NCBI GenBank assembly: GCA_965283725.1
Contig: CBDIPT010000002.1
Location: forward strand, 537,354 to 601,353
Direction of reading: 5' to 3'
Length of the DNA stretch: 64,000 bases
DNA from: Limisphaerales bacterium
Lineage (GTDB): Bacteria; Verrucomicrobiota; Verrucomicrobiia; Limisphaerales; JAEYXS01
Part shown: positions 2,030-53,002 of the stretch, one piece after another
How the letters are laid out: each line of letters opens with the position of its first letter
Numbering within the stretch: the stretch's first letter is position 1
Notes under the pieces: generated by a model
What the model was told of the DNA's origin: nothing
The model's input: the letters and a program-made list of their open reading frames with translations, nothing else
The model's database searches: none
Program-made: the position numbers and the translations under genes

Positions 2030-2773
2030 ATGAAAGTGCTGATCCTAGCGGCTGGCTATGCCACCCGCCTTTACCCTTTGACGTTGACCCAGCCCAAGCC
2101 GCTGTTGCCAGTGGCCGGCAAGCCCATGATCGATTTCGTCATGGACAATCTCGCGGCCATTCCGGAGATCGACCATGTGTACGTCGTGACGAACGCAAAG
2201 TTCGCCGGGCATTTCCAGAAATGGGCTGACGCCTATGACTCCAAGGCGAAACTCCAGTTCACCATCATCAATGACGGCTCCACGGATGACTCCAACAAAC
2301 TGGGTGCCATCGGTGACCTGCACCTGGTGCTGACCAAGGAGAAGATCAACGATGACCTTATTGTGGTCGCTGGTGACAATCTCTTCAGCGAGAAGCTCGG
2401 CGAGTTCGGCAAATACTGCCTCGCCAAGAAAGCGCCCGTGCTTGGTCTCTACGATGTCGGCAGTCTGGAGCAGGCCAAAAAGTACGGGGTGGTGAGCATC
2501 GATAGCGAAGGCAAGCTGTCCAAGTTCGTCGAGAAGCCCGCGCAGCCCGAGAGCACCTTGATCGGCATCGCGCTCTATTACTACCCGAAGGCTACTTTGC
2601 CCTTGGTGGACCAATACATCAAAGAAGGCAACAATCCGGATCAACCGGGGCGCCTCGTGCAATGGCTCTACCCGCGTCAATCCGTCTATACGTGGACCGT
2701 GCCGGGCATCTGGTATGACATCGGTTCCAAGGAAACGTTGGAAGAAGCGAACCGGATTTTCGGCAGGCGCTGA
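2030..2773 (+). CDS. sugar-phosphate nucleotidyltransferase (NDP-sugar pyrophosphorylase family)
   Basis: N-terminus MKVLILAAGYATRLYPLTLTQPKPLLPVAGKPMIDF matches the G-x-G-T-R-L/KP-L nucleotidyltransferase signature. 247-aa ORF. Confidence 0.8.
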   Translation: MKVLILAAGYATRLYPLTLTQPKPLLPVAGKPMIDFVMDNLAAIPEIDHVYVVTNAKFAGHFQKWADAYDSKAKLQFTIINDGSTDDSNKLGAIGDLHLVLTKEKINDDLIVVAGDNLFSEKLGEFGKYCLAKKAPVLGLYDVGSLEQAKKYGVVSIDSEGKLSKFVEKPAQPESTLIGIALYYYPKATLPLVDQYIKEGNNPDQPGRLVQWLYPRQSVYTWTVPGIWYDIGSKETLEEANRIFGRR

Positions 2774-2787
2774 GTCCCATTTACAAA

Positions 2788-2828
2788 GCAAAAAGGCCGA
2801 AGAATGATTCCTTCGGCCTTTTTATTTT
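2788..2828. terminator. bidirectional intrinsic terminator hairpin between convergent genes
   Basis: Stem ggccgaag (2795-2802) pairs with cttcggcc (2811-2818). An A-run lies upstream and ttttatttt downstream. Confidence 0.75.
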
Positions 2829-2838
2829 AGCTGAAGCA

Positions 2839-3798
2839 CTACTTGATTCCCTGGGCCTTCACCTCGATCGCATAGAGCGATTTGCGCGCCGTGATGAAGA
2901 GCGTTTTCAAATCTTTGCCGCCGAAGCCCACGTTGGCCGGGCCTTCCGGCACGAGGATCTTGCCAATGAGTTCCCCGCTGGGTGCGAAGATGTGCACACC
3001 ATCACCCGCGCTGGACCACACGCGACCGGCCTTGTCGCAGCGGATACCATCGGGGCCACCCTTGTCGATTTTGCCGAACACTTTGCCATTCGAGAGCGTG
3101 CCGTCGGCATTCACATCAAATACGCGAATGTGCTTCGGCGCGCCGGAATCGGCGATGTAGAGTTTCTTTTCATCGGGCGAGAAGCATAGGCCGTTGGGCT
3201 TGTCGAAATCTTTCACCAAGGCGGTGATGGTTTTCGTTTTGGGGTCGAAGCGGAACACATAATCGTCAGCCTGCTCCTTGCCTTCTTTTTCCTTCGTGCC
3301 CGGCTTGTTTTTCAGCCCGTAATCCGGATCGGTGAAGTAAATCGTGCCGTCGGATTTCACCACCGGATCATTCGGTGAATTCAATTTCTTGCCTTCAAAC
3401 GAATCGATCAGCGTTTTGATGGTGCCGTCTTTTTCCGTCACGGACACGCGGCGTCCGCTATGCTCGGCGCTAACAAGGCGGCCTTGCAAGTCGATGGTGT
3501 TGCCGTTCGCATTCTGACTGTTCTCACGGAAGATGGTGACGCCGTCTTTCGCGGTCCATTTCTTCAGGTGATTCGCTGGAATGTCGCTGAAGATCAGATA
3601 GCCGCCGTTTTCATTGAACCACTGCGGGCCTTCCGTGAAGTTCATATCCGTTGCCAATTTCTTGAGGGGCGCGGACGTATCGACTGCGTCTTTGAAGGCC
3701 GCTTCGTTGCGGATATCGAAGATCGAGGCCGTTTCAGCGGCGGAGAGGGTTTGGGCCAAGGCCAACCCCAGCGAGGCGATAAGCAGAGTTCTCTTCAT
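2839..3798 (-). CDS. SMP-30/gluconolactonase/LRE-family beta-propeller protein, secreted
   Basis: Signal peptide MKRTLLIASLGLALAQTLSA. Family-typical strings FTEGPQWF, PNDPVVKSDGTIYFTDP and PNGLCFSPDEKKLYIADS. Confidence 0.8.
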   Translation of the reverse strand: MKRTLLIASLGLALAQTLSAAETASIFDIRNEAAFKDAVDTSAPLKKLATDMNFTEGPQWFNENGGYLIFSDIPANHLKKWTAKDGVTIFRENSQNANGNTIDLQGRLVSAEHSGRRVSVTEKDGTIKTLIDSFEGKKLNSPNDPVVKSDGTIYFTDPDYGLKNKPGTKEKEGKEQADDYVFRFDPKTKTITALVKDFDKPNGLCFSPDEKKLYIADSGAPKHIRVFDVNADGTLSNGKVFGKIDKGGPDGIRCDKAGRVWSSAGDGVHIFAPSGELIGKILVPEGPANVGFGGKDLKTLFITARKSLYAIEVKAQGIK

Positions 3799-5293: not shown

Positions 5294-8158
5294 TTATTCG
5301 CTCAGAATCTTGGCGCGGCGCTCGTGGTATTCCTTCGGCGAGATCTTGTCCGCCTTGTAAAGGTCGAGCAGCTCTTTGAGCTTCGCTTCCTTGCCGGTAG
5401 CAGCCGGCTTGGTTTCGGAGGCCGTCTTCTTGTCCGCCTTCTTCTCCGGTTTCGGAGCTTCTGGCTTGGTGACGGTGGCAGCCGGAGCAGTGGTGGCCGG
5501 TTTCTTGACGGCAGCCGCTGCTTTCTTGGCCGCTTCTGCTTCCGCTTTAGCCTTGGCTTCAGCCGCTTTCTTCGCCGTTTCAGCATCGGCCTTGGCCTTC
5601 GCTTCCGCGTCCTTCTTGGCCTTGGCATCAGCTTTGGCTTTAGCTTCGTCTGCCTTGCGCTTCGCTTCGGCTTCTTTCTTGGCCTTTTCTTGGGCGAGCT
5701 TGGCGTCGGCTTTAGCCTTCTTGTCAGCTGCTTCCTTGGCCTTCGCGGCTTCCTGCTTGGCTTTGGCTTCTTTCTCAGCCGTCAATTTGGCGACCTTGGC
5801 CTGCTCTTCTTTTTTCTTCGCGGCTTCTGCGGCTGCTTTCTTGGCCGCTTCTTCGCGGGCTTTGGCATCCGCCTTGGCCTTCGCATCAGCCATTTCTTTG
5901 GCCTTGGCTTCGATCTTGGCTTTTTCTTCCGCCGCCTTCTTGGCGTCCGCCGAAGGGGCAGCCGGCTTCACCGGTTCAACCTTCTTAGGTTCGGCCACGG
6001 TGGCGACCACTGGCTTCTTCGGTTCTTCCACCTTCTTGACCGCCGGGGCAGGGGCCGCCGGTTTGGTCATCTTGGCCTGCTCGGCCTTCTTCGCTTCGGC
6101 TTGTGCCTTGGCGATCTTGGCTTGTTCAGCCTGACGTTTTTCGGCTTCTTCGGCCGCTTTCTTGGCCGCAGCTTCCTTGGCTTTGACCTCTTCCTTAGCC
6201 TTGGCCGCAGCGAGTTCTTTGGCCTTCGCATCCGCCTTGGCTTTCGCTTCCGCAGCTTCCTTCTGCGCCTTTAAGCGGGCCTTCTCATCCTTCAAGCGTT
6301 GTGCATCGGCCTTCTCTTTGGCTTCCGCGTCTGCTTTGGCTTTGGCCATCTGCGCTTTCTTGGCGGCGGCTTCGGCGTCCTTCTTTGCTTCGGCTTCCTT
6401 CTCGGCCTTGGCTTTCGCGAGCTTGGCCTGTTTCTCGGCTTCCGCTTTGGCTTTCTTGTCGGCCTCAGCCTTGGCTTCGGCTTCTTTCGCCGCCTTTTCC
6501 TTGGCCAGCTTGGCTTGTTTCTCCGCTTCAGCCTTGGCCTTCTTGTCCATGTCCGCTTTGGCAACGGGCTTGGTGGTCTTGGCCGCAGCGAGTTCTTTGG
6601 CCTTGGCATCCGCCTTGGCTTTTTCTTCCGCCGCTTTCTTGGCGCTCTGCGCCTTCATTTCGGCCTGGCGCTTCTCTTCAAGTTGTTTAGCTGCTTCCGC
6701 TTCAGCCTTGGCTTTGGCTTCCGGCGTGGCTGACTTCGGATCGATGACCGGAGCCTTGGCCATCTTGGCACGGGCTTCGGCGCGTTCTTTCTCGATCTGG
6801 GCCTGACGGGCTTTGGCTTCTTCGTCCGCCTTCTTGCGGGCTTCTTCACGTTCCTTGCCCTTCGCAGCGGCCATTTCATCCGCCTTCTTCTTGGCGGCGG
6901 CGCGTTCGGCATTGATACGTTCCGATTCCGTCATGAGTGCCGGGTCCTTGGTGGCCGGAGTAGGCGCAGCGACGGGCGGCTTGGCATCCGTCTTCGCCAT
7001 CTTGGCTTTCTTCTCGGCTTCCGCTTTCGCTTTCTTGTCAGCATCCGCTTTGGCCTTGGCTTCAGCTTGGGCTTTGGCTTCGGCTTCTTTCTTGGCGGTG
7101 GCGGCGGCCTTCAAACGGGCTTCTTCGGCTTTCTTGGTGTCCGCTGCGGCGGGCTTGGGCGTCGTCGTGGCGGTGGTCACCGGCTTCGAAGGTTTGCTGG
7201 CCGTAGTGGCAGGAGCAGCGACCGAAGCGCTGGTAGAATGCTGCGTCGTGGCACGCGGCACAACGGAGCGCGGCGTAGAGGTGGTCGGCGTGGTGCGCAC
7301 AGCGCGTTCACGCATCTGGGCGAGGGCGGACGCCTTAGCGTCGGCTTCAGCCTTCTGCAGTTCGGCTTCGCGCATCTTGGCGAGCAGCGACGCTTTGGCA
7401 TCGGCTTCAGACTTCAGCAAAGCCTGATTGCGATCCAGTGCGAGCACCGAAGATTTGGCTTCCGCTTCAAATTGTTGGACAGAAACACCACGATTTGCGG
7501 CCGCAGGCTTGGAAGCCGGAGCAGCAGCGGTGGTGGCCGTGGCAGGTTTGGAACCGGTGGCCGGCTTCGCCGCCGTCTTGGTCATGCCCGCCTTCTTCTG
7601 GGCTTCAGCGGCGGCTTTCTTGTCAGCGTCCGCTTTGGCCTTGGCTTGGGCTTCCGCCAATTTCTTGGCTTCGGCTTCCTTCTTCTTGGCGACTTCGGCA
7701 GCCTTCTTGTCAGCGTCGGCTTTGGCTTTCGCGGCAGCGTCGGCTTTCTTCTTGGCCTCGGCATCCGCTTTGGCTTTGGCGTCCGCGGCTTTCTTCGCTT
7801 CGGCTTCAGCCTTCTTCTTGGCTTCCGCTTCCTTCTTGGCGGCTTCTTCCTTGGCCTTGGCTTGGGCTTCTGCGGCCTTCTTGGCGGCGGCCTCAGCCTG
7901 CTTCTTCGCTTCGGCATCCGCTTTCGCTTTTGCTTCGGCTTCTTCTTTGGCTTTTTCAGCGGCCTTGGCTTTGATTTTTTCCGCTTCGCGGGCCTCGCGT
8001 TCCTGTTTGCGCTTGGCTTCGGCTTCCGCTTTCAGTTTGGCAGAAGCATCGGCCTGAGCATAAAGAACGGTCTCGGCGTAGACGGTGGTGTCCGGCGTGA
8101 CGGAGATCACTCCCCACGTAATCAGCAGGGCTAGCAGGAATAGCTTGGAAAGTCGCAT
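5294..8158 (-). CDS. Ala/Lys/Glu-rich low-complexity envelope protein (TolA-domain-II-like helical repeats) with N-terminal signal/anchor and C-terminal SHOCT-like motif
   Basis: 954-aa ORF. N-terminus MRLSKLFLLALLITWGVISV. Hundreds of residues of AKAEAEAKKKA-type sequence with Thr/Pro-rich patches. C-terminus KLKELLDLYKADKISPKEYHERRAKILSE. All other frames are open only because of the composition. Confidence 0.8.
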   Translation of the reverse strand: MRLSKLFLLALLITWGVISVTPDTTVYAETVLYAQADASAKLKAEAEAKRKQEREAREAEKIKAKAAEKAKEEAEAKAKADAEAKKQAEAAAKKAAEAQAKAKEEAAKKEAEAKKKAEAEAKKAADAKAKADAEAKKKADAAAKAKADADKKAAEVAKKKEAEAKKLAEAQAKAKADADKKAAAEAQKKAGMTKTAAKPATGSKPATATTAAAPASKPAAANRGVSVQQFEAEAKSSVLALDRNQALLKSEADAKASLLAKMREAELQKAEADAKASALAQMRERAVRTTPTTSTPRSVVPRATTQHSTSASVAAPATTASKPSKPVTTATTTPKPAAADTKKAEEARLKAAATAKKEAEAKAQAEAKAKADADKKAKAEAEKKAKMAKTDAKPPVAAPTPATKDPALMTESERINAERAAAKKKADEMAAAKGKEREEARKKADEEAKARQAQIEKERAEARAKMAKAPVIDPKSATPEAKAKAEAEAAKQLEEKRQAEMKAQSAKKAAEEKAKADAKAKELAAAKTTKPVAKADMDKKAKAEAEKQAKLAKEKAAKEAEAKAEADKKAKAEAEKQAKLAKAKAEKEAEAKKDAEAAAKKAQMAKAKADAEAKEKADAQRLKDEKARLKAQKEAAEAKAKADAKAKELAAAKAKEEVKAKEAAAKKAAEEAEKRQAEQAKIAKAQAEAKKAEQAKMTKPAAPAPAVKKVEEPKKPVVATVAEPKKVEPVKPAAPSADAKKAAEEKAKIEAKAKEMADAKAKADAKAREEAAKKAAAEAAKKKEEQAKVAKLTAEKEAKAKQEAAKAKEAADKKAKADAKLAQEKAKKEAEAKRKADEAKAKADAKAKKDAEAKAKADAETAKKAAEAKAKAEAEAAKKAAAAVKKPATTAPAATVTKPEAPKPEKKADKKTASETKPAATGKEAKLKELLDLYKADKISPKEYHERRAKILSE

Positions 8159-38376: not shown

Positions 38377-40932
38377 ATGAGGACAATGAACCTGTTCCAG
38401 TTCGCGTCGGTGGTGGTCGCCAGTCTGCTGGTCACCGCCGGTTTGTCTGCCCAGACCGTCATCGAGCCGGCCGCCGGCCGCTACTTCATCTCCAGCACGG
38501 GGAATGATCAATGGAGCGGGAAGCAGGTGGGCCCCAATGCCACCCGTACCGATGGTCCATTTGCCACCGTGGGTCGCGCGCTGGAGGAGATGCGCAAGCA
38601 ACCGCTGAAGTGCGTCACCTATGTGCGTGGCGGTATCTATCATCTTTCCGCCCCGATCGAGATCAAACCGGAAGACTCCGGTCACAAGCTGGAGGCATAT
38701 CCGGGCGAGAAACCGGTGATCAGCGGTGGCATTCCAGTGCGTGGCTGGGCTCCGGCTCCGAACAATAACAACCTGTGGGTGGCGAAGGTGCCTGAGGTGC
38801 AGACGAAACGGCTTTTCGCCGGGCAGTTCTGGGTGGACACGGAATTGCAGACGCGGGCGCGATATCCCAACGTTGACCCGGCCAACCCGGCGACGAGCGG
38901 CTGGAACTTCGTCATCAATGAGGGACCGGGCATCGGCGCGTTTGGGGCGGTGATCGCCAAGATCAACAACGCCGGGGACTGGGTGGAGTGGACCGTGAAC
39001 GCACCCGCAGAGGGGGCGTACAAGGTGGCGTTCTATTACAGCACACAGAATTCGCAGGCGGGCTTTAACAACATGGCTGGCCGCACTTCCATCCAAGTGG
39101 GAACGCAGCCGCCGGTCACCGTGCAAAACCTGCCCGAGAGCGCCGGCGGGTTGAGCTTCTACCAATGGCGGGTGGTGGCGACGGTGCAGTTGAGCCAAGG
39201 GCCGCAGGCCTTGCGCTGGAACAATCTGCAAGGAGGTTTCATCAACCTGGACGCCATCGCGCTGAGCGATGATCCCGCGTGGAATCCGGCGGGCAGTGCG
39301 CTGGCGCGTCCCGCCACGCCGGGCAAACAATTGATCGTCATCCAGGCAGAATCGTTTTCCGCCGCGAATGCGAAAGACATGGTAAAGCCCGCCACGGGGA
39401 TGGCGACGTCCAAGGGCAAGTTCCAGTTCCGCGCGGGTAACGTGAAGGACTACCCCAAGTCACCCGAGGTGGAGGTCAATATGTTCACCGGGCCGGGTTG
39501 GCTGAACACCATCATGCAGGTGCGCAGCATCGATCAGGAGAAGCGCACGCTGACCTTGCAGCCGACGATCAGTGCGGCGTTTGATATCCTGCCGGGCAAC
39601 CGCTATTACATCGCCAATGCGTTTGAAGAGCTGGACACGCCGGGCGAGTGGTATCTGGACCGTGCTTCCGGCAATCTTTACTTCTGGCCGCCCAAGCCGG
39701 GTTCCAGGACCGGGGGACGTTCCTGCCGGTGCTGGATCGCTTGATCGAGTTCAAGGGCAGTCCGGCGCAGAACAAGTGGGTGGAGGAATTCACCATCAAA
39801 GGCTTTGAGTTCCGGCACACGACGTATTCACGCACCGTCCAGCCATCCGCGGCAAACGATGCGGCCGTCTGGCTCATCGGTGCGCGCAAGTGTGTGCTGG
39901 AGGGGAACCGCTTCGTGAACCTGGGCGGGCATGCCATCAAGCTCGAGAACAAATCCGCCGGCAACGAGATCGTGGGCAATGAACTGACGGGACTTGGGGA
40001 GGGTGGCATTATTTTCACCGGATCGGCGGCCACGCAAGCCACGGGCAATCTCATCGCGGGGAATTGGATCCACCACATTGGTGATGTTTACAAACACGTG
40101 GCCGGGGTGATGGTGAACACCGGTGGCGGCAACCGCATCGCCAACAATCTGTTCGAGCACTTGCCGCGCATGGCCGTCTCGCTCAAGAGCATGGATGCCG
40201 GTAATTACTCGCACACGAACGTGGTGGAGTTGAATGACATCCAGTTCGTGAACTTGGAGACAGGTGATAGCGGGGCGATCGAATCGCAAGGCCGCCACCG
40301 CAAGGACACCGGCAATGTCATCCAATACAATCGTATCCGGGACACGGGCGGCCTGACGGCGGATACCGAGGGCAAGTTGCGCGGGCCGTACGCCACGTGG
40401 GGCATCCGCCTGGATGATTACACCAGCGGCACGTTGGTGAAGGGGAACATTGTGATCCGTTCCGTGCGCGGTGGGGTCGGGGTGATCGGCGGCCGGAACA
40501 ATCTCATCGAGAACAACATTTTCATAGATGGCGCGGAATACAGGCGGCCTATGTGGTCGGAGACGCCAACACCACGAGCAACCGGTTCATCCGCAATATT
40601 GTGATGTTCAAAGATCCGCAGGCCGCCTTGTTCCATGCAGGGGGGACATGGGCCAACTCCGTGCTCTCGCAATCAGACCGCAACCTCTACTGGCACAGCC
40701 AGGAGCCGCGTATTTCACCGGCGCGAAGATCACGCCCAAGGGAACGCTGAAAACCTGGCAGGCGAGCGGGTTTGATCAGAATTCCATGCTGGCCGATCCC
40801 ATGTTCATGAATGCCGCGCAGGATAATTATCAGCCCGCGAACGCATCCCCCGCGAAGCAACTTGGCTTTGAGGAGATTCCCTTCGCGAAGATCGGATTGC
40901 AGGGATTTGACCGGTCGTGGAAAAAGAAATGA
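38377..40932 (+). pseudogene. secreted right-handed parallel beta-helix protein with CBM-like insert, interrupted by three single-base frame changes
   Basis: Signal peptide MRTMNLFQFASVVVASLLVTAGLSAQT. The sequence continues across ORFs 38377-39744, 39648-40604, 40553-40750 and 40528-40932. Breaks near 39698-39704, 40537-40539 and 40705-40710. Confidence 0.75.
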
Positions 40933-40936
40933 GCTG

Positions 40937-42379
40937 ATGAAGGGGCTCCGCCAGTTGTGGTTCGGCTGGTTGCTGCTGGCGCAGGCGGTATCTGTTCAAG
41001 CGGTGGAACAGCTCGTTGCCACGGTAAAGGAGTTCGCGGCCTTTCAGCGCGCGGCCAAGCCGGGAGACATCCTCATCCTCAAAGATGGTGTGTGGGCGGA
41101 TACCGAGTTGCTGTTCGATGCGCAGGGCGAAGCGGGCCAGCCCATCACACTGCGGGCGCAGACGCCGGGCAAGGTGGTGCTGACGGGCAAGTCGCGGTTG
41201 CGTATTGGCGGGCAGCATCTGGTGGTGGAAGGGTTGTGGTTCAAGGAGGCGAAAGAGCGCCAGCATGACGTCATCGAGTTCCGTGCCACTTCGGTCAAAC
41301 CAGCGCTGAATTGCCGTCTGACCGGTTGCGCTATCACGAGTTTGAATCCGCCAGATAAAAAGCGGGATTACAAGTGGGTCTCCCTCTATGGCGTCAGCAA
41401 TCGCGTGGATCACTGTTACTTCGGCGGGAAGCAGCATGCGGGCACGACGTTGGTGGTGTGGGTGGGAGACAAGCCGAATTACCATCAGATAGACCACAAT
41501 CACTTCGGGCCGCGTCCGCGTTTGGGCGAGAACGGGGGCGAGACCATTCGCGTGGGCACGAGCGAGGTGTCCATGAACAACTCCCGCACGGTCGTGGAGT
41601 TCAATCTCTTTCAGGAATGCAATGGTGAGGTGGAGATCGTGTCCAACAAGTCCTGCGAGAACATCTATCGGCACAATACGTTCTTGAACTGCGAAGGAGC
41701 GATGACATTGCGGCATGGCAACCGGTGCGTGGTGGAGGCGAATTACTTTCTCGGCAATCACCGCAAGAACACGGGCGGCGTGCGGGTTATCGGGGAAGAT
41801 CATCGCGTGGTGAACAATTTGTTCTCCGAGTTGGAGGGAGTGGAGGCAAGGTCGGCTCTGACGTTAATGAACGGGCTGAAGGATTCGCCGCTGCACGGCT
41901 ATTTTCAGGTGAAGCGGGCGGTGATCGCGTTCAATACGTTCTCCAACTGCCAATCTTCGGTGTTGATCGGCTATGTGAGTGATAATCCGAAGGGCGGAGA
42001 TTTACCGCCGTTGGATTGTGTGTTTGCGAACAACTTGCTGGAGTCAGCCAAGGTGCCTTTGATCAAGGTGGAGACGGTGCCGCAAAACTGGAAGTGGCAG
42101 GGGAATATCGCGATTGGAGATGCTGGCATGGCGATTTCCGCTGGAATTGACCAGATTGATGCGAAGGGCAAAGACTGGCGTCCTGCTGGTGCTCCGATGG
42201 ACTACAGTCGCACAGTTGGTAAAGGGGTGGCCGGTTTTCCTGAGGTTGAGGAGGATATCGAAGGTCAGCCGCGATATGCGGTGAAAGATGTTGGTTGCGA
42301 CCAGAAGTCTGTGGCACCCGTAAAGTATAAGATTCTGACAAAAGAGACGACGGGGCCGGGATGGTTGAAGGAGAGGTGA
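40937..42379 (+). CDS. polysaccharide lyase family 6-like (chondroitinase B / alginate lyase fold) protein
   Basis: ATG at 40937 with signal peptide MKGLRQLWFGWLLLAQAVSVQA. ILILKDGVWADTELLFDAQGEAGQPITLRAQTPGKVVLTGKSRLRIGGQHLVVEGLWFK resembles PL6 N-termini. Confidence 0.7.
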   Translation: MKGLRQLWFGWLLLAQAVSVQAVEQLVATVKEFAAFQRAAKPGDILILKDGVWADTELLFDAQGEAGQPITLRAQTPGKVVLTGKSRLRIGGQHLVVEGLWFKEAKERQHDVIEFRATSVKPALNCRLTGCAITSLNPPDKKRDYKWVSLYGVSNRVDHCYFGGKQHAGTTLVVWVGDKPNYHQIDHNHFGPRPRLGENGGETIRVGTSEVSMNNSRTVVEFNLFQECNGEVEIVSNKSCENIYRHNTFLNCEGAMTLRHGNRCVVEANYFLGNHRKNTGGVRVIGEDHRVVNNLFSELEGVEARSALTLMNGLKDSPLHGYFQVKRAVIAFNTFSNCQSSVLIGYVSDNPKGGDLPPLDCVFANNLLESAKVPLIKVETVPQNWKWQGNIAIGDAGMAISAGIDQIDAKGKDWRPAGAPMDYSRTVGKGVAGFPEVEEDIEGQPRYAVKDVGCDQKSVAPVKYKILTKETTGPGWLKER

Positions 42380-42454: not shown

Positions 42455-43882
42455 TTAGAAACGGGCGACTTCGGTGAAGGCAGTGTGATTCAAGCTAAAG
42501 CCATTCCCGAACGGGGCATGGTTGATGGTTTTTAAAGCGATGCGACCGTCTTGAATGGTCAGGCTGGGCCAGCCTTGCGCGGTTGGGTGATAAAGATCGG
42601 GATGGGCGGTGAGCATTTGCTGCTGCACTTCTGCGGAATACGCTGAGAGGCCGGCGACGTAGTGGTGGCCGTTACGTTCTACGCTTTCGATACCGAGCGC
42701 GCCGGTCACGGCGAGGTCTTGCAGGAGCGCGATGGGGCCTTGGTTGCAGAGGTCTTCGCCGCTCATGAGCCATGGACGACTGGGTTGGATTTGCGCGCGG
42801 TGCAGCAGGAGGCAGCGGTTCGCGATTCCCTTGAAAACGCCCTTGCAATTCTTATGGCTCGTGCCCGCGTAGCCGAGGCTGAGGGCACGTGGCAAGCTGC
42901 CGAGCTCGCCATCGGATTCATCAATGATGATGGGCGGGTGATCGGGCCAGGCGGCGAGTGCGTGGCCGACAGCCTCGGTCAGCGCGTAGTCGCGGTGCAG
43001 CGGTTGTTCAACGAAAAGGAGATGCTGCAGAAAAAATCTTAGTGAAGGCTCGTCATGCAAGGATTCCCAGAAGGTGCGAAAGGCTTCGATGGTCTTGAAC
43101 TGCTCGTTGCCATCCAGACTGAAGGCGTAATCGGCCGGCGCGTGCTGGTCTAGAATGGTGGCGATTTGCTGGAGACGGGTGAGGTCGGTAGCGGGTTGGC
43201 CATTTACTTTGAGCTTGAAATGGCGCAGGCCGTAGGTGCGGATGCAGTCCTCAAGCGATTGTGGCAGGCCATCGTGCAAACGACTGGCTTCGGTGATTTC
43301 ACTAGCGGCGAGCGGGTCCGCGAGGCCGACGGTGTGACGGGCGATGATGGAAGGGAGCGGTTGTGACGGTAGCAGGTCACGTGGCGCCACACCGGCCAGC
43401 TCGGGATGGATGGCGGCGAGGTGAATACCGAGTCTTCCATCGTGCAAGAGCGTGGCAAAGGGTTTGCCGGTGGCGCGGCAGGCGGCATCAATCAAAGCGC
43501 GCTCAACGAGCGAAGTGCCGAAGTGGGCGAGCAAAGGCGGGGTGTTCTGCTGTGCTGCCCAGTTGCCTTGTTGCTGGTAGAGTTCAAACAATAGTGCGAA
43601 CGCGTTCTGAGCCTGCTTGTTCACGGCCAGCGAAATGGCGTGCTGGATGACGTGGAGCATCTCCGCGATCTCCAACTGCGGGTCTTTCTCAGGGATTTTC
43701 GTGAACCATTTTGGTGGGAGCAAATCAGACGAGATGCCTTCGCTGCGGCGACCATCCACCTCGCAAACCAGGCGCACGAAGACTTGCGGCATGTGCATCA
43801 TCGTGGCGATGCCATAGCGGAACGGCATGCGCGTATGCAGGTCGATGCGATGGATGCTGCCTTCGAGGATGCGGATGTTCAT
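42455..43882 (-). CDS. enolase-superfamily enzyme (mandelate racemase/muconate lactonizing enzyme-like)
   Basis: RHFKLKVNG (KxK), LDGNEQF, LLFVEQPL and IIIDESD line up with the MR-subgroup metal-ligand pattern. Confidence 0.7.
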   Translation of the reverse strand: MNIRILEGSIHRIDLHTRMPFRYGIATMMHMPQVFVRLVCEVDGRRSEGISSDLLPPKWFTKIPEKDPQLEIAEMLHVIQHAISLAVNKQAQNAFALLFELYQQQGNWAAQQNTPPLLAHFGTSLVERALIDAACRATGKPFATLLHDGRLGIHLAAIHPELAGVAPRDLLPSQPLPSIIARHTVGLADPLAASEITEASRLHDGLPQSLEDCIRTYGLRHFKLKVNGQPATDLTRLQQIATILDQHAPADYAFSLDGNEQFKTIEAFRTFWESLHDEPSLRFFLQHLLFVEQPLHRDYALTEAVGHALAAWPDHPPIIIDESDGELGSLPRALSLGYAGTSHKNCKGVFKGIANRCLLLHRAQIQPSRPWLMSGEDLCNQGPIALLQDLAVTGALGIESVERNGHHYVAGLSAYSAEVQQQMLTAHPDLYHPTAQGWPSLTIQDGRIALKTINHAPFGNGFSLNHTAFTEVARF

Positions 43883-43976
43883 GCTGGTTTGCCTAAACTA
43901 TACTAACCTTGCTTTCAAAGTCTCAAGGCTGCAACGTCTATTAGATTCTCACAACGACTGCTGAAAACGCCAAGGC

Positions 43977-45005
43977 ATGAATATTGAACAAGGGCATAAG
44001 TGGCTATTTGAGCTCACAAATTTTCGCGTCCACATGTGTGATGAGAAAACCATCTCGCCGGTTCCTGGCGACGCTCCCAAAGGGACATTGCCTGGTTGGA
44101 AAAGGAACCTTATCTCGTTCGATTTACCTGATAGGCAGTGGACTCTGATTGATTACACGATTCCCGATAGGCCTACCCGTGATGAAATTGAAGGTAGTAC
44201 GTTAATTAGCGGCGAACTTTTCACGGAAATTAAACCGCACGACAACTTAGATGAGATTCTGGAGACCGTTGACATTTTATGCATGTTACTCTCTTTTGCG
44301 TTAGGTCGAGGCATTGCTGCTCCTGATTGTTATAAGCAGTCAGATGAAAATGTAACTTTTGTTCGCAGCCGCAGTATGCGAATGGATTTGTATGCTGACG
44401 GCGGGTATGCTCTCATCGAAAACTCGCGAAAAGGACAGTTACGTTCGTTTCTGGAATGTGCCTATCCTATCGTTTTAAAAAAGAAGGGATGGTGGCTTAA
44501 AACTCTAGATTTCTCAATTCAGGCTCGGATGAGTGTGTTTCTCGAAATTCAAGCATCTCTTTCGAATGTTCTTTTGGATAGGATAGCCGCGTTCTATCCA
44601 GAAAATCGTGTTGGAGGGGAAATCGACGAGACTTTAGATGAGGTAATCAATGATCCACAATTCAAGAGGCAGATAACGGAATTAATCGAAGAGTATTGCG
44701 CTGGTTGGACTCAAAAACGGACTGAGGAATACATAATCCAGCACCTTGCTAACTGTAATAAACGCCCTTCATTCGCTAATGGCATCAAACGGGTCCACCG
44801 TCTGAACAATTTGGAAGAGCCTAAAGGCAAATTTTTGAGTCAACGTCACAAACTACTTCACGAAGGCGATTTGACTGACGGAGATGATGATGCCGCTAAA
44901 TACGTTAATCAACTCTTTGCAATGACCGGGCGATTGCTGCTCAAAATGCTCGGCTATTCTGGTCGTTACTATGACATATCCAGTGGCGCATATGCTTTAA
45001 TTTAA
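43977..45005 (+). CDS. hypothetical protein with C-terminal HEPN-like Rx4H motif (candidate ApeA/Abi-type RNase)
   Basis: 342-aa ORF in AT-rich DNA. SQRHKLLHEG is encoded at 44838-44867 (R 44844-44846, H 44859-44861), followed by the helix AAKYVNQLFAMTGRLLLKML. Confidence 0.75.
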   Translation: MNIEQGHKWLFELTNFRVHMCDEKTISPVPGDAPKGTLPGWKRNLISFDLPDRQWTLIDYTIPDRPTRDEIEGSTLISGELFTEIKPHDNLDEILETVDILCMLLSFALGRGIAAPDCYKQSDENVTFVRSRSMRMDLYADGGYALIENSRKGQLRSFLECAYPIVLKKKGWWLKTLDFSIQARMSVFLEIQASLSNVLLDRIAAFYPENRVGGEIDETLDEVINDPQFKRQITELIEEYCAGWTQKRTEEYIIQHLANCNKRPSFANGIKRVHRLNNLEEPKGKFLSQRHKLLHEGDLTDGDDDAAKYVNQLFAMTGRLLLKMLGYSGRYYDISSGAYALI

Positions 45006-45081
45006 TTTGTCCTGACCTGGGTCGAAATCTTTCGATTGCCTGCCCTTTGACAATTCGCCGCGCCTTGTTAGGTTGCAGGGT

Positions 45082-45573
45082 ATGGATGCGTTGCACGCCC
45101 CTTGGCGGATTGACTATATCCTCGGGCCGAAAGGACCGAAGGATGGGCGCTCCATTTTCACGCAGATCGCCGAGTCGAGTGACGATGTGGCGAATTACGT
45201 CATCGCGCGGGGCAAGTCGTGCTACGCGGTGCTGAACCGTTACCCCTACAATGGCGGGCACATCATGACGGTGCCGTACAAGCAGGTGCCGGACTTCAAT
45301 GGCCTCACGGACGCGGAGATGCTGGAGCTGATGCAGCTCACGCGGCGTTGCCAGGCGGCGTTGACGCAGGTGATGAAGCCGCATGGGTTCAACATCGGGG
45401 TGAACCTTGGGCAGGTCGCGGGGGCGGGGATCGTGGAACACTTGCACATCCATATTGTGCCGCGGTGGAACGGAGATGTGAACTTCATGCCGGTCATCGG
45501 GAGCACGGCGATCATTCCGGAAGCATTGACGGATACGGCGGCGAAGCTCCGGGCCGCCTTGTTAACCCTCTGA
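45082..45573 (+). CDS. HIT (histidine triad) family hydrolase
   Basis: HLHIHIVPRW histidine-triad motif. ATG at 45082 (MDALHAPWRIDYI). Confidence 0.88.
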   Translation: MDALHAPWRIDYILGPKGPKDGRSIFTQIAESSDDVANYVIARGKSCYAVLNRYPYNGGHIMTVPYKQVPDFNGLTDAEMLELMQLTRRCQAALTQVMKPHGFNIGVNLGQVAGAGIVEHLHIHIVPRWNGDVNFMPVIGSTAIIPEALTDTAAKLRAALLTL

Positions 45574-45587
45574 CGAATCATTTTCTT

Positions 45588-46553
45588 ATGGCCGACGAAA
45601 CTATTCATTTTGAGAACCCTCGTCTCGTGCAGCAGCTCTTCGGTGCGGATTCGCCGAACCTGAAGTCGCTCGAAGACCAATTGCACGTGAAGGCGACAGC
45701 GCGCGACGGCTGGATCAAGCTGGAGGGCGAGCCGGATAACATTGGGCGGGCGAAGCAATTGTTCACAATCCTTGAGGATTCCATCAAGGCGGGCGGGCAG
45801 GTGCGGAATCGCGAGTTCATGTCCGCGCTCGGCGTGGTGAAGGCGGACGGCGTGGAGGCGTTGCGCAACCTGATGAGCGAGCGCATCCAGACATCCGCCG
45901 GCAAACCTTCCATTATGCCCAAGACGCCGGGGCAGAAGAAATATGTGGAAGCGATCCGGGAGCACGACGTGACGTTCGGCATCGGCCCGGCGGGCACGGG
46001 CAAGACGTATCTGGCGATGGCGATGGCGGCTTCAGCTTTGAAGGCAGGCAAGATCAGCCGGATCATTTTGACACGTCCGGCGGTGGAAGCGGGCGAAGCG
46101 CTGGGTTTCCTGCCGGGTGATCTGCACGAGAAGCTGACGCCGTATCTGCGGCCGCTTTACGATGCCTTGCACGATATGATGTCGCCGGAAGAACTGGCAA
46201 AGCATATCGAGCGCGGGGTAATCGAGATCGCGCCATTGGCTTATATGCGCGGGCGTACGTTGAACCACGCGTTCATCGTGCTGGATGAATCGCAGAACGC
46301 GACGATGGAGCAGATGTTCATGTTCCTCACGCGCTTGGGCTACAGCTCTAAGGCGGTCATCACGGGTGACCCGACACAGGTGGATTTGCCGGGGCATAAG
46401 AAGTCTGGCCTAGTGGAAGCGATCACGGCCTTGAAGAAGATCCCGGGCATCGCCTTCCACGAGTTCACGAAGCAGGATGTGGTGCGGCATCAACTGGTGC
46501 AGCGGATCATCGAGGCGTACGAGAAGCATCGCGGCACGGGACGGAACGAATGA
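45588..46553 (+). CDS. phoH: PhoH-family ATPase
   Basis: ATG at 45588 (MADETIHFENPRL...). Walker A GPAGTGKTYLA and the DESQN Walker B context. Confidence 0.9.
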   Translation: MADETIHFENPRLVQQLFGADSPNLKSLEDQLHVKATARDGWIKLEGEPDNIGRAKQLFTILEDSIKAGGQVRNREFMSALGVVKADGVEALRNLMSERIQTSAGKPSIMPKTPGQKKYVEAIREHDVTFGIGPAGTGKTYLAMAMAASALKAGKISRIILTRPAVEAGEALGFLPGDLHEKLTPYLRPLYDALHDMMSPEELAKHIERGVIEIAPLAYMRGRTLNHAFIVLDESQNATMEQMFMFLTRLGYSSKAVITGDPTQVDLPGHKKSGLVEAITALKKIPGIAFHEFTKQDVVRHQLVQRIIEAYEKHRGTGRNE

Positions 46554-47739: not shown

Positions 47740-47809
47740 ACGCGCTTCAGGGGGCTTCTTGCACACACGGCGACCAGGCCGCAGATACTGTTTGGAGTGA
47801 TTGTTGAGA

Positions 47810-48238
47810 ATGAAAATATCATACCATGGTATTGTGCTGTGTTTCTTGTGTTTCTTTTTTGCGTGTAGCAAGGCTGAGAGAATTAGCAAGGCGGATGCTA
47901 CAGCTTCTATAATCAAAACCACGTATTTTAATGTTGAATTTGAGCCGGATGGGTTTTCCCGATTGAAATGGCTTCGTTCCAAAGGTGTTTCGGATTCGGA
48001 GTTGGTTGTTTTTGTGAGTGATTGGAGTCGTAACCCTCAGAAAACGATTGAGGAATTGGATAAAAACGCGCCGCCGAGAAAAGACCTATGGGGGCATGAT
48101 TTAAGAGTAAGGTGGCGATCAAAAGAGGATCCTGAGACTTTGCTGCCGGGCAAAAATCTGATCATTTGGTCGGTTGGTCCAAATGGAATTAATGAAAATT
48201 GCTCAGGAGATGATGTTGTGGTTTCTTGGAAGTTGTAA
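47810..48238 (+). CDS. AT-rich lipoprotein-like hypothetical (pseudopilin-GspG-C-terminus-like tail)
   Basis: ATG at 47810. MKISYHGIVLCFLCFFFAC has a lipobox-like FFAC. The C-terminal IIWSVGPNGINENCSGDDVVVSW recalls the type II pseudopilin tail. Confidence 0.55.
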   Translation: MKISYHGIVLCFLCFFFACSKAERISKADATASIIKTTYFNVEFEPDGFSRLKWLRSKGVSDSELVVFVSDWSRNPQKTIEELDKNAPPRKDLWGHDLRVRWRSKEDPETLLPGKNLIIWSVGPNGINENCSGDDVVVSWKL

Positions 48239-51694: not shown

Positions 51695-53002
51695 CTACGC
51701 TGGTTCTTCTTTAAATTTCTTTTTCTGCTTGAGAAGATATGCTAGATGTTTGCGAATTTGCTTCAAATCCTCCCCATCTCTGTTCCTGAATTGATAATAG
51801 AGATCGAGATCGTCTAGCGTCCGGATTCTCTTAATGTGTGTGAAAATGAAAGCGAAAGTCGTCTCGCATATCAATTTTAGAAATTGAACATCCACGTCTT
51901 TAATCTCGCTGTATTCTCCTCGATGAACTGCATTGTTTCTCTTGTCGGCGATTTCATTTAGAGCCAGTTTCAGGCCGATTCCGTCGGGAAGGAATATTTG
52001 TTTGTAAGCGGCTAACCTTTCACAAACAACATCAGTTTTGCCTGATGTTCGATCTGAAAGCGTTAGCAGTTCTGCCAATTGCCAGAAGCCGACTAAGCGC
52101 CTATGAATCATCGTTTCGCTTAAAGCTTGAGAGTAAAGACGAAGGGCTGTTGCAAGGAGATCTTTCGTGGAACCTTTTTGGGGTATAGCTTTAAAGAAAA
52201 CAGCATTTTTAAGTATGGCTGCGAAGGTTTGTTCGTTAAGAGTTTGTGTTTTTTCCGGTTCTGTTGAATCGACTAGAATATGAGCGACCTTCTTTGTTTT
52301 TTCTGAAACTGCTACAATCCATCTAGCAGCTTCTGAATAGCAAGCGGACTTGGGGTATATAGACCAACCAAATTGCCGATTCCCAAATCCTTGTGTTAAT
52401 TCGAAAATACCTTTTAGGGTTTCATAGGCTGCGTCGATTTCCAGCCATGCTTTGTACCAGTCTTTCCCTTTAACATGCACTCGCCAAAAAGTTGGAGGCG
52501 AAGTTCTTAAGCGAATTCCATACTGCAAAATATCTGCCTTGTAATGTTCGAGCTCATGCTTGGCAGATTCTCCTTCCAACATCTGAAATGAAGTTCCCAA
52601 CACCTGCAGGCGCTTTGGGGCTTTGCTGTGTGTTTTGAAAAAGGCGGGTATCAGGAAAGTCCAAGTCGTTTCTTGTCTTTTTTGTGCGTCAGAGGGTGTT
52701 CGAGAAATGGTGGAGTAAACATTCTCGAAATCTTCAATACTTGAGAGTTCGGATTCTGCCATCATGGTTAATGCCTTGGCCAAATTCGCTTCCGTAATCC
52801 TAGGGCGGTCACAAATTTTTCTAAGAGCAAGTGCGCCTACTTGGAGTATCAAGTCAAAGGAGCAATTCTCATCAGCCGACGTGGATTTTGAGCTGGGACA
52901 ATGCTTAATCAAATTTTGGATTATATGGCTTGCAGCTTTGCGGTTGCTGCTTGCTTTTGATTGCTCAGATCCAAGCCATCTAAATTGAGGGTTTTTGCTC
53001 AC
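51695..53002 (-). CDS. hypothetical protein with C-terminal HEPN-like Rx4H motif (candidate Abi/defence RNase)
   Basis: 435-aa ORF in AT-rich DNA. DKRNNAVHRGE is encoded on the minus strand (R 51938-51940, H 51923-51925), flanked by predicted helices LLATALRLYSQALSE, LVGFWQLAELL and VQFLKLICETTFAFIF. Confidence 0.75.
   Translation of the reverse strand: MSKNPQFRWLGSEQSKASSNRKAASHIIQNLIKHCPSSKSTSADENCSFDLILQVGALALRKICDRPRITEANLAKALTMMAESELSSIEDFENVYSTISRTPSDAQKRQETTWTFLIPAFFKTHSKAPKRLQVLGTSFQMLEGESAKHELEHYKADILQYGIRLRTSPPTFWRVHVKGKDWYKAWLEIDAAYETLKGIFELTQGFGNRQFGWSIYPKSACYSEAARWIVAVSEKTKKVAHILVDSTEPEKTQTLNEQTFAAILKNAVFFKAIPQKGSTKDLLATALRLYSQALSETMIHRRLVGFWQLAELLTLSDRTSGKTDVVCERLAAYKQIFLPDGIGLKLALNEIADKRNNAVHRGEYSEIKDVDVQFLKLICETTFAFIFTHIKRIRTLDDLDLYYQFRNRDGEDLKQIRKHLAYLLKQKKKFKEEPA

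Follow-up and report, generated by a model that had tools for sequence, protein, structure and literature searches.

Single-protein HEPN nucleases and a lone gene of the window

Among the described nucleases of the HEPN superfamily, ApeA is an auto-inhibited tRNA anticodon nuclease, activated by deoxydinucleotides that bind a pocket away from the active site (bioRxiv 10.64898/2026.01.26.701840), and DARNA (PD-T7-3) is a single-protein, auto-inhibited HEPN tRNase that is activated by single-stranded DNA bound to the single-stranded DNA-binding protein SSB (10.64898/2026.02.22.705581). Here, we compare these systems with a lone gene encoding a protein of 342 amino acids (aa), which lies in a 64,000-nucleotide (nt) stretch of a Limisphaerales bacterium contig (CBDIPT010000002.1; this whole stretch is referred to as the window). 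A preliminary description of this DNA had taken the gene for a horizontally acquired lone HEPN protein, and this overall reading is supported by our analysis so far as computation could test it: its testable components agreed with the proposal, and none of the outcomes named beforehand as refuting it was observed. We consider it reasonably probable that the protein is a ribonuclease of the HEPN superfamily (Apea-like clade) that works on its own, is encoded by a horizontally mobile gene, belongs to an unnamed family and acts by an anti-phage abortive-infection mechanism.

Like ApeA, the protein is encoded by a single gene and has a C-terminal Apea-like HEPN domain with an R[N/H]xxxH motif, preceded by non-catalytic N-terminal domains, and the sole above-threshold match of a family member, described below, is to the Apea profile (PF18739, HEPN_Apea). 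ApeA/BMEI1217 has been noted beside restriction-modification genes (PMC3710099), as are the homologues of the present gene. ApeA differs, however, in that Ec2ApeA has a longer chain, in which residues 335-583 form the HEPN region and the N-terminal and Mid domains are mainly α-helical, whereas the present protein has only 342 residues and a β-rich N-terminus. Among the 114 family members that were aligned, there was no match to ApeA_NTD1 or to the stand-alone PADLOC ApeA model, and Cas13-ApeA was matched in one member (E = 0.002); no ApeA structure was recovered either by sequence search or by Foldseek. Judged by its size, its N-terminal fold and the lack of an ApeA_NTD1 or stand-alone PADLOC ApeA match, an assignment of the protein to ApeA proper is not supported.

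DARNA, HepS and PD-T4-2 resemble the arrangement that we propose for this protein, in that each joins a HEPN RNase to a non-catalytic sensor or assembly domain within one polypeptide, and they bring about abortive infection through tRNA cleavage. The domain order of DARNA is reversed, with an N-terminal HEPN domain and a C-terminal Pds5-like helical domain, and no sequence relationship of our protein to DARNA, HepS or PD-T4-2 was detectable. PrrC and RloC likewise end in a HEPN domain that carries a catalytic R/H motif, are linked to restriction-modification loci and cleave tRNA (PMC3710099), but they carry an N-terminal ABC-type ATPase and are restrained by a partner restriction-modification enzyme, whereas the present protein has neither an ATPase domain nor a fixed partner. 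The HEPN-MNT (HepT-MntA) and AbiF-type systems share with it a HEPN protein, in their case a toxin, with an Rx4H motif, but they require an adjacent MNT or RNA antitoxin, and neither is present at this locus. The gene had been seen as isolated and flanked by spacers of its own, and this proved correct: at the cassette, with its spacers of 94 bp and ~70 bp, we found no partner open reading frame (ORF), no tandem repeat and no Rfam match, which sets it apart from type II HEPN-MNT and type III toxin-antitoxin systems.

The R290/H295 motif and homology to HEPN families

An Rx4H dyad had been noticed in SQRHKLLHEG, about 50 residues before the C-terminus, and we located it at R290 (codon 44844-44846) and H295 (codon 44859-44861), 52 residues from the C-terminus. 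By chance, a protein of such composition would be expected to contain 0.44 Rx4H motifs, so that the motif alone is not significant, and its significance comes from its conservation in relatives. A word-indexed search of 5.8 billion proteins returned only five relatives, at identities of at least 31%, and an exhaustive hidden Markov model search seeded with the alignment of these five, with a cut-off of E <= 1e-3, gave a family of 659 representative clusters, 110 of them at E <= 1e-30. With the 114-sequence profile, the word-indexed search returned 6 proteins only, and a scan of metagenome contigs with another alignment (A1) added one further short contig. The 114 aligned relatives are 15-50% identical to the query; R290 and H295 are each kept in 111 of these sequences and, together with L81, are the only positions conserved in at least 90% of them. 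The residue after the arginine is H in 67, N in 29 and D in 7 members (103 of 114 in all), and G297 is kept in 98. Since the HEPN signature is Rx4-6H with a polar N, D or H right after the R (PMC3710099), the family carries the HEPN motif. The dyad is thus conserved among homologues, a point on which the preliminary description had made its proposal depend.

Most members (84 of the 114) have an extra N-terminal segment of ~117 residues, the long forms reaching ~460 aa, and 26 are short forms like the protein studied here. That the 342-aa form could be a truncation was rejected, because these 26 members are equally short and a lost exon could not be accommodated in the 94-bp spacer upstream.

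Each of the 114 members was scanned singly against Pfam and PADLOC, with matches counted at E <= 0.01. Nine Pfam and four PADLOC families were matched across the members, and five of these 13 are HEPN families. HEPN_Apea, matched by three members, was the sole family recurring in more than one member; the other, weak HEPN matches were to HEPN_RiboL-PSP, HEPN_MAE_28990 and the PADLOC families Csx1/Csm6 and Cas13-ApeA, and HEPN_Swt1 was matched in a later, looser scan of the members. A search of all 114 against NCBIfam gave zero matches. The HEPN_Apea match of P0128, a relative that joins the family profile at E = 1e-20, scored 26.1 bits compared to a gathering threshold of 24.4 bits (E = 1.2e-5), and weaker matches to the same family were given by P0149 and P0148. 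The P0128 match spans 102 residues, equivalent to residues 222-325 of our protein and including the dyad, and R397 and H402 of P0128 share alignment columns with R290 and H295. At E <= 1.2e-5, about 0.001 false positives are expected over 114 scans. A curated HEPN profile is therefore reached by way of the relative P0128. The conserved dyad and the above-threshold match across the motif support, at the level of sequence comparison, the membership of the protein in the HEPN superfamily, as had been proposed from the sequence. The accompanying remark that no family is recognisable in the first ~285 residues held in part: ~220 residues are uncharacterised, but the Pfam-mapped HEPN domain begins near residue 222.

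An AlphaFold model obtained with a deep alignment had a predicted local distance difference test (pLDDT) score of 96 and a predicted template modelling score of 0.93, an earlier model having reached a pLDDT of 76. It comprises a β-rich N-terminal domain (residues 1-135), three helices (154-206), a helical C-terminal part (220-325) and a terminal β-hairpin. The helices of the HEPN domain are modelled at 227-240, 246-262, 266-276, 284-296 and 303-324, with the dyad at the C-terminal end of helix 284-296, ahead of a loop (297-302). The amphipathic helix that had been suggested after the motif was also found in the model, in which this stretch (AAKYVNQLFAMTGRLLLKML) forms helix 303-324. The canonical place of the HEPN motif is the end of core helix-3 or the start of the loop to helix-4 (PMC3710099), and the motif of our protein occupies this place within an all-α domain at the level of secondary-structure order. 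In the N-terminal domain, the conserved residues are F11, N15, W55, L57, L81, L104, L105 and A108, and no relative of this domain was found in Pfam, PADLOC, NCBIfam, PHROG or the PDB; those of the middle segment are F158, E160, W172, T176, L199, D/E201 and R202.

Several results weigh against the reading of the protein as a mobile HEPN nuclease of anti-phage defence. The protein itself matched nothing in Pfam, PADLOC, NCBIfam or PHROGs, which means that it has no HEPN match of its own and is not recognised by the PADLOC models of defence systems, known or candidate, and the link through P0128 exceeds the threshold by just 1.7 bits. Foldseek searches of the PDB with both models (pLDDT 76 and pLDDT 96) gave no significant match; HepS (9oij) appeared at rank 30 with the pLDDT-96 model, at a non-significant E of 2.5, and no meaningful match came from sequence searches of the PDB, whether the query was the protein, the A1 or A2 profile, P0128 or P0149. 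The best Foldseek match in BFVD, A0A3S6HCY2, is an unnamed viral protein of 222 aa (E = 3.4e-3, probability 1.00, TM score 0.51 on our protein, 190 aligned columns), which is the sole structural match with a high Foldseek probability, but this match is borderline. It could be informative if it were a phage HEPN-like protein. No relatives were found in plasmid, phage (tblastn) and viral-contig collections, the genomic contexts of homologues were read at eight loci only, and the gene lies among housekeeping genes, outside any defence island, both in the window and in a related strain.

The missing HEPN match of the protein itself, the narrow score of P0128 and the failure of Foldseek to retrieve any HEPN structure despite a model of such high confidence would all suit a different explanation, in which R[HN]xLLHxG is a conserved site of some other helical fold, used in binding or in a non-RNase catalysis, and the Pfam matches are driven by the motif. 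This is quite unlikely in our view: the HEPN share of the matched families, the recurrence of HEPN_Apea alone, the extension of the P0128 match well beyond the motif at an E-value that leaves little room for chance, and the canonical place of the motif in the secondary structure all argue against it.

If the protein is a HEPN ribonuclease of the kind that we favour, its mode of action may be sketched by analogy with the systems described above. Two subunits would pair via their HEPN domains, and R290 and H295 of each would form a composite, metal-independent active site, while the non-catalytic N-terminal and middle region would hold the enzyme inactive. A signal of a phage or of another invading element, sensed by this region, would then activate the enzyme, which would cut cellular RNA, most likely tRNA anticodon loops, like ApeA, DARNA, HepS, PrrC and RloC, so that translation would halt and the infection would abort. 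Dimerisation, RNase activity, substrate, auto-inhibition, trigger and anti-phage phenotype are all predicted in this way, and the terms sensor, effector and defence stand for roles that we infer. A more specific version, which we put forward only tentatively, is that the family may be a previously unrecognised single-gene anti-phage system, in which the β-rich N-terminal domain would be a new kind of infection sensor that controls an HEPN tRNase of the Apea clade, with the extra ~117-residue module present in most members, and in which cassettes would be traded between species at fixed core-genome sites, through homologous recombination in the flanks.

Transfer of the cassette and contexts of its homologues

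The ORF is intact, from the ATG at 43977 to the TAA at 45003-45005. Its G+C content (GC) is 0.435, compared to a mean of 0.571 for equal-sized segments (z = -3.75, with 1.2% of segments equally low), and its GC at third codon positions (GC3) is 0.426, compared to 0.71-0.83 in the upstream 475-aa gene and in the HIT, PhoH, YbeY, DUF502, RecO and UvrB genes, which bears out the first impression of a gene AT-richer than its neighbours.

P0156, a cluster mate of the protein at >=90% identity, is carried by two metagenome contigs from different samples (L011 and L012), on which the order of the site is the same as in the window, namely the 475-aa gene, the cassette gene and HIT-PhoH-YbeY-DUF502. 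Between the window and L011, the DNA identity of the cassette gene is 98.9% (6 synonymous and 5 non-synonymous differences), compared to 86.3% for the 475-aa gene (127 and 44), 91.4% for PhoH (71 and 5), 89.2% for YbeY (36 and 11) and 85.8% for DUF502 (58 and 26). The low-divergence tract common to L011 and L012 extends past the cassette and its two spacers into both flanking genes, taking in their first ~130 bp and ~100 bp, respectively, and it is flanked by sequence that diverges by ~18% on the left (43300-43751) and ~6% on the right (45183-45800). Its left edge is sharp and lies inside the 475-aa gene, and on the right, divergence climbs gradually through HIT and PhoH. On the evidence of these alignments, the tract records that the cassette passed recently from one diverged lineage to another, through homologous recombination in its flanks. 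Metagenome contigs may be chimeric, yet the two samples agree and P0156 retains the motif. The horizontal acquisition that had been proposed for the gene is thus upheld, both by its outlying GC3 and by a tract of ~1% divergence inside flanks that diverge by 6-18%. As to integration scars, there is no tRNA gene in the window, no direct repeat around the cassette and no integrase at the site. An imperfect inverted repeat of 26 nt (77% complementary, 43642-43667 and 45312-45337), with its arms in the 475-aa gene and the HIT gene, brackets the tract, probably by chance. We propose that the cassette spreads among lineages by homologous recombination via the conserved flanking genes.

In the window and in the related strain alike, the gene directly precedes the HIT-PhoH-YbeY-DUF502 genes and has their orientation, which could also be taken to mean that the protein is a housekeeping or stress RNA-processing nuclease, which works with PhoH-YbeY and is retained at the site for that reason, the more so as YbeY is an endoribonuclease. 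We hold this to be very improbable, because the composition of the gene (GC3 0.43 compared to ~0.75-0.83 for the cluster), its history decoupled from that of the cluster (1% compared to 6-18% divergence) and the variable contexts of its homologues all disfavour it. In the contexts read, PhoH and YbeY are never adjacent to the distant homologues, and so few relatives among billions of proteins do not suggest a housekeeping function.

At every readable homologue locus, genes of conflict systems or mobile elements are present, and the GC of the homologue is below that of its surroundings at all of these loci. The neighbours include an SNF2 helicase, an HNH protein, an MmeI-type restriction-modification enzyme, a PDC-M68B-like gene and a DUF4365/pAgo-associated restriction endonuclease (REase) at L001; a PIN toxin-antitoxin pair at L002, in a Pirellula metagenome-assembled genome; a tyrosine integrase, a HerA-like ATPase and ArdC at L007; a split methyltransferase, a type IIG enzyme and an S8 peptidase with an AAA ATPase at L008; an SNF2 helicase, Vsr and DUF932 at L015; and ASCH, FRG and cpYpsA at L016. 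Two homologues are on named contigs, and these contigs belong to metagenome-assembled genomes of Planctomycetota and Verrucomicrobiota. A conserved partner gene was looked for and rejected, the neighbours being different at every locus. The distant homologues are thus surrounded by changing sets of restriction-modification, toxin-antitoxin or mobile-element genes, with none of the fixed housekeeping synteny that would have spoken against the preliminary description, and in its composition, variable context and decoupled history, the gene has the properties of a mobile accessory gene over the eight contexts.

At L002, the family member is followed by an ORF of 356 aa (2204-3274, + strand), which overlaps its stop codon by 11 bp, has no family match and contains a stretch resembling the PD-(D/E)xK nuclease motif (…GEADFV…DVKIF…), and the gene downstream of the homologue at L001 is the DUF4365 REase-like protein. 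There may be a loose recurring association of the family with genes of the REase fold at these two loci.

A cassette that moves between lineages could instead be a selfish or addictive toxin or an inter-element weapon, in which an active HEPN RNase benefits the cassette itself, through post-segregational killing, through the exclusion of competitors or together with an unrecognised antitoxin in cis or elsewhere. The homologues beside a PIN toxin-antitoxin pair and within an integrase/ArdC/HerA element fit such a role, and many HEPN proteins are toxins of toxin-antitoxin systems (PMC3710099). We nevertheless regard this as unlikely: no antitoxin ORF, MNT gene, tandem RNA repeat or Rfam RNA adjoins the gene, no partner is conserved over the eight contexts, and the ~220 conserved non-catalytic residues are more in keeping with a regulator inside the protein than with a toxin-antitoxin system of two parts.

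Features of the window and wider meaning

The features of the cassette and of its surroundings are listed in Table 1.

Table 1. Positions in the window of the cassette gene, its predicted domains and its flanking features.
Feature	Position	Strand	Basis
Complete ORF, 342 aa, short-form member of an unnamed family supported as HEPN (Apea-like clade)	43977..45005	+	ORF; 659 relative clusters; AlphaFold model, pLDDT 96
N-terminal β-rich domain, residues 1-135, seven strands and helix 91-109; putative regulatory or sensor domain	43977..44381	+	Secondary structure, conservation
Middle three-helix segment, residues 154-206	44436..44594	+	Model, conservation
HEPN (Apea-like) domain, residues ~222-325	44640..44951	+	Pfam HEPN_Apea match of P0128
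Predicted catalytic dyad R290-H-K-L-L-H295 (Rx4H), end of helix 284-296	44844..44861	+	Conservation in 114 relatives; intact in strain variant P0156
Upstream 94-bp spacer, divergent intergenic, between 475-aa gene (-) and cassette gene (+)	43883..43976		Read from sequence; identical in L011
Downstream spacer (~70 bp), ahead of HIT gene	45006..45081		Near-identical in L011
Low-divergence tract common to L011 and L012	~43752..45182		14 mismatches in about 1431 nt (~1%)

An AAGG sequence is located 5-8 nt ahead of the ATG of the cassette gene. The sole sigma-70-like match in the upstream spacer is on the minus strand (43926-43897) and would serve the 475-aa gene, and no terminator-like site was seen on the + strand of the downstream spacer. 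The identities of the neighbouring HIT, PhoH, YbeY and DUF502 genes, which the preliminary description had named, were confirmed, as were those of RecO and UvrB, but its enolase-superfamily label for the 475-aa gene goes back to a match to MR_MLE_C (enolase C-terminal) that lies below threshold (E = 8e-4).

Three AT-rich single-gene insertions, two of which carry R-x4-H motifs, lie within a 9-kb part of the window. The second lone gene (51695-53002, - strand; GC 0.42, GC3 0.39) is an ORF of 435 aa, for which the public annotation gives a 356-aa form starting at M81, and it contains KRNNAVHRG together with a weak match to Pfam RiboL-PSP-HEPN (E = 0.026). It has one homologue among the 5.8 billion proteins, P0155 (56% identity), in which the motif is kept as KRNTIVHRG. 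Like the lone gene in the window, the gene of P0155 lies next to a BD-FAE esterase gene of opposite orientation, but its other flank is different. Homology to the family of the cassette gene was rejected, as hhalign aligns only the motif region, with a probability of 2.8%, in accordance with the earlier view of a second, sequence-unrelated lone gene with a similar motif. The third insertion (47801-48238, + strand; GC3 0.42), between DUF502 and RecO, encodes a protein of 145 aa, which has no family matches and whose N-terminus resembles a lipoprotein signal (…FLCFFFAC|SKAE); since L011 and L012 carry unrelated GC-rich sequence at this position, the ORF is strain-variable.

A gene of the Chondroitinase_B family (522 aa; 40811-42379, + strand) has no counterpart in L011, and as the alignment to L011 skips from ~40742 to ~42342, this region is a strain-specific indel just upstream of the 475-aa gene. 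At 5-8 kb of the window, the AT skew is -0.45 to -0.69, due to a minus-strand ORF of 954 aa (5294-8158), whose product has a signal peptide and is a highly repetitive, A/K/E-rich low-complexity protein (AEAKAKADAEAKKKA…).

The defence systems of Planctomycetota and Verrucomicrobiota have been little explored. The effector chemistry and the overall logic proposed here are already known, and the finding brings no new principle. If the favoured reading is confirmed, a ~660-cluster unnamed family would join the one-protein HEPN immune nucleases, and its new N-terminal domain would bring a new trigger question, which is an open issue for the single-protein HEPN class. A defence-like cassette that is ~99% identical in lineages whose flanking core genes are 9-14% different offers a clean natural example of spread by recombination, and the case of the window suggests that such spread can take place without integrase or repeat scars.
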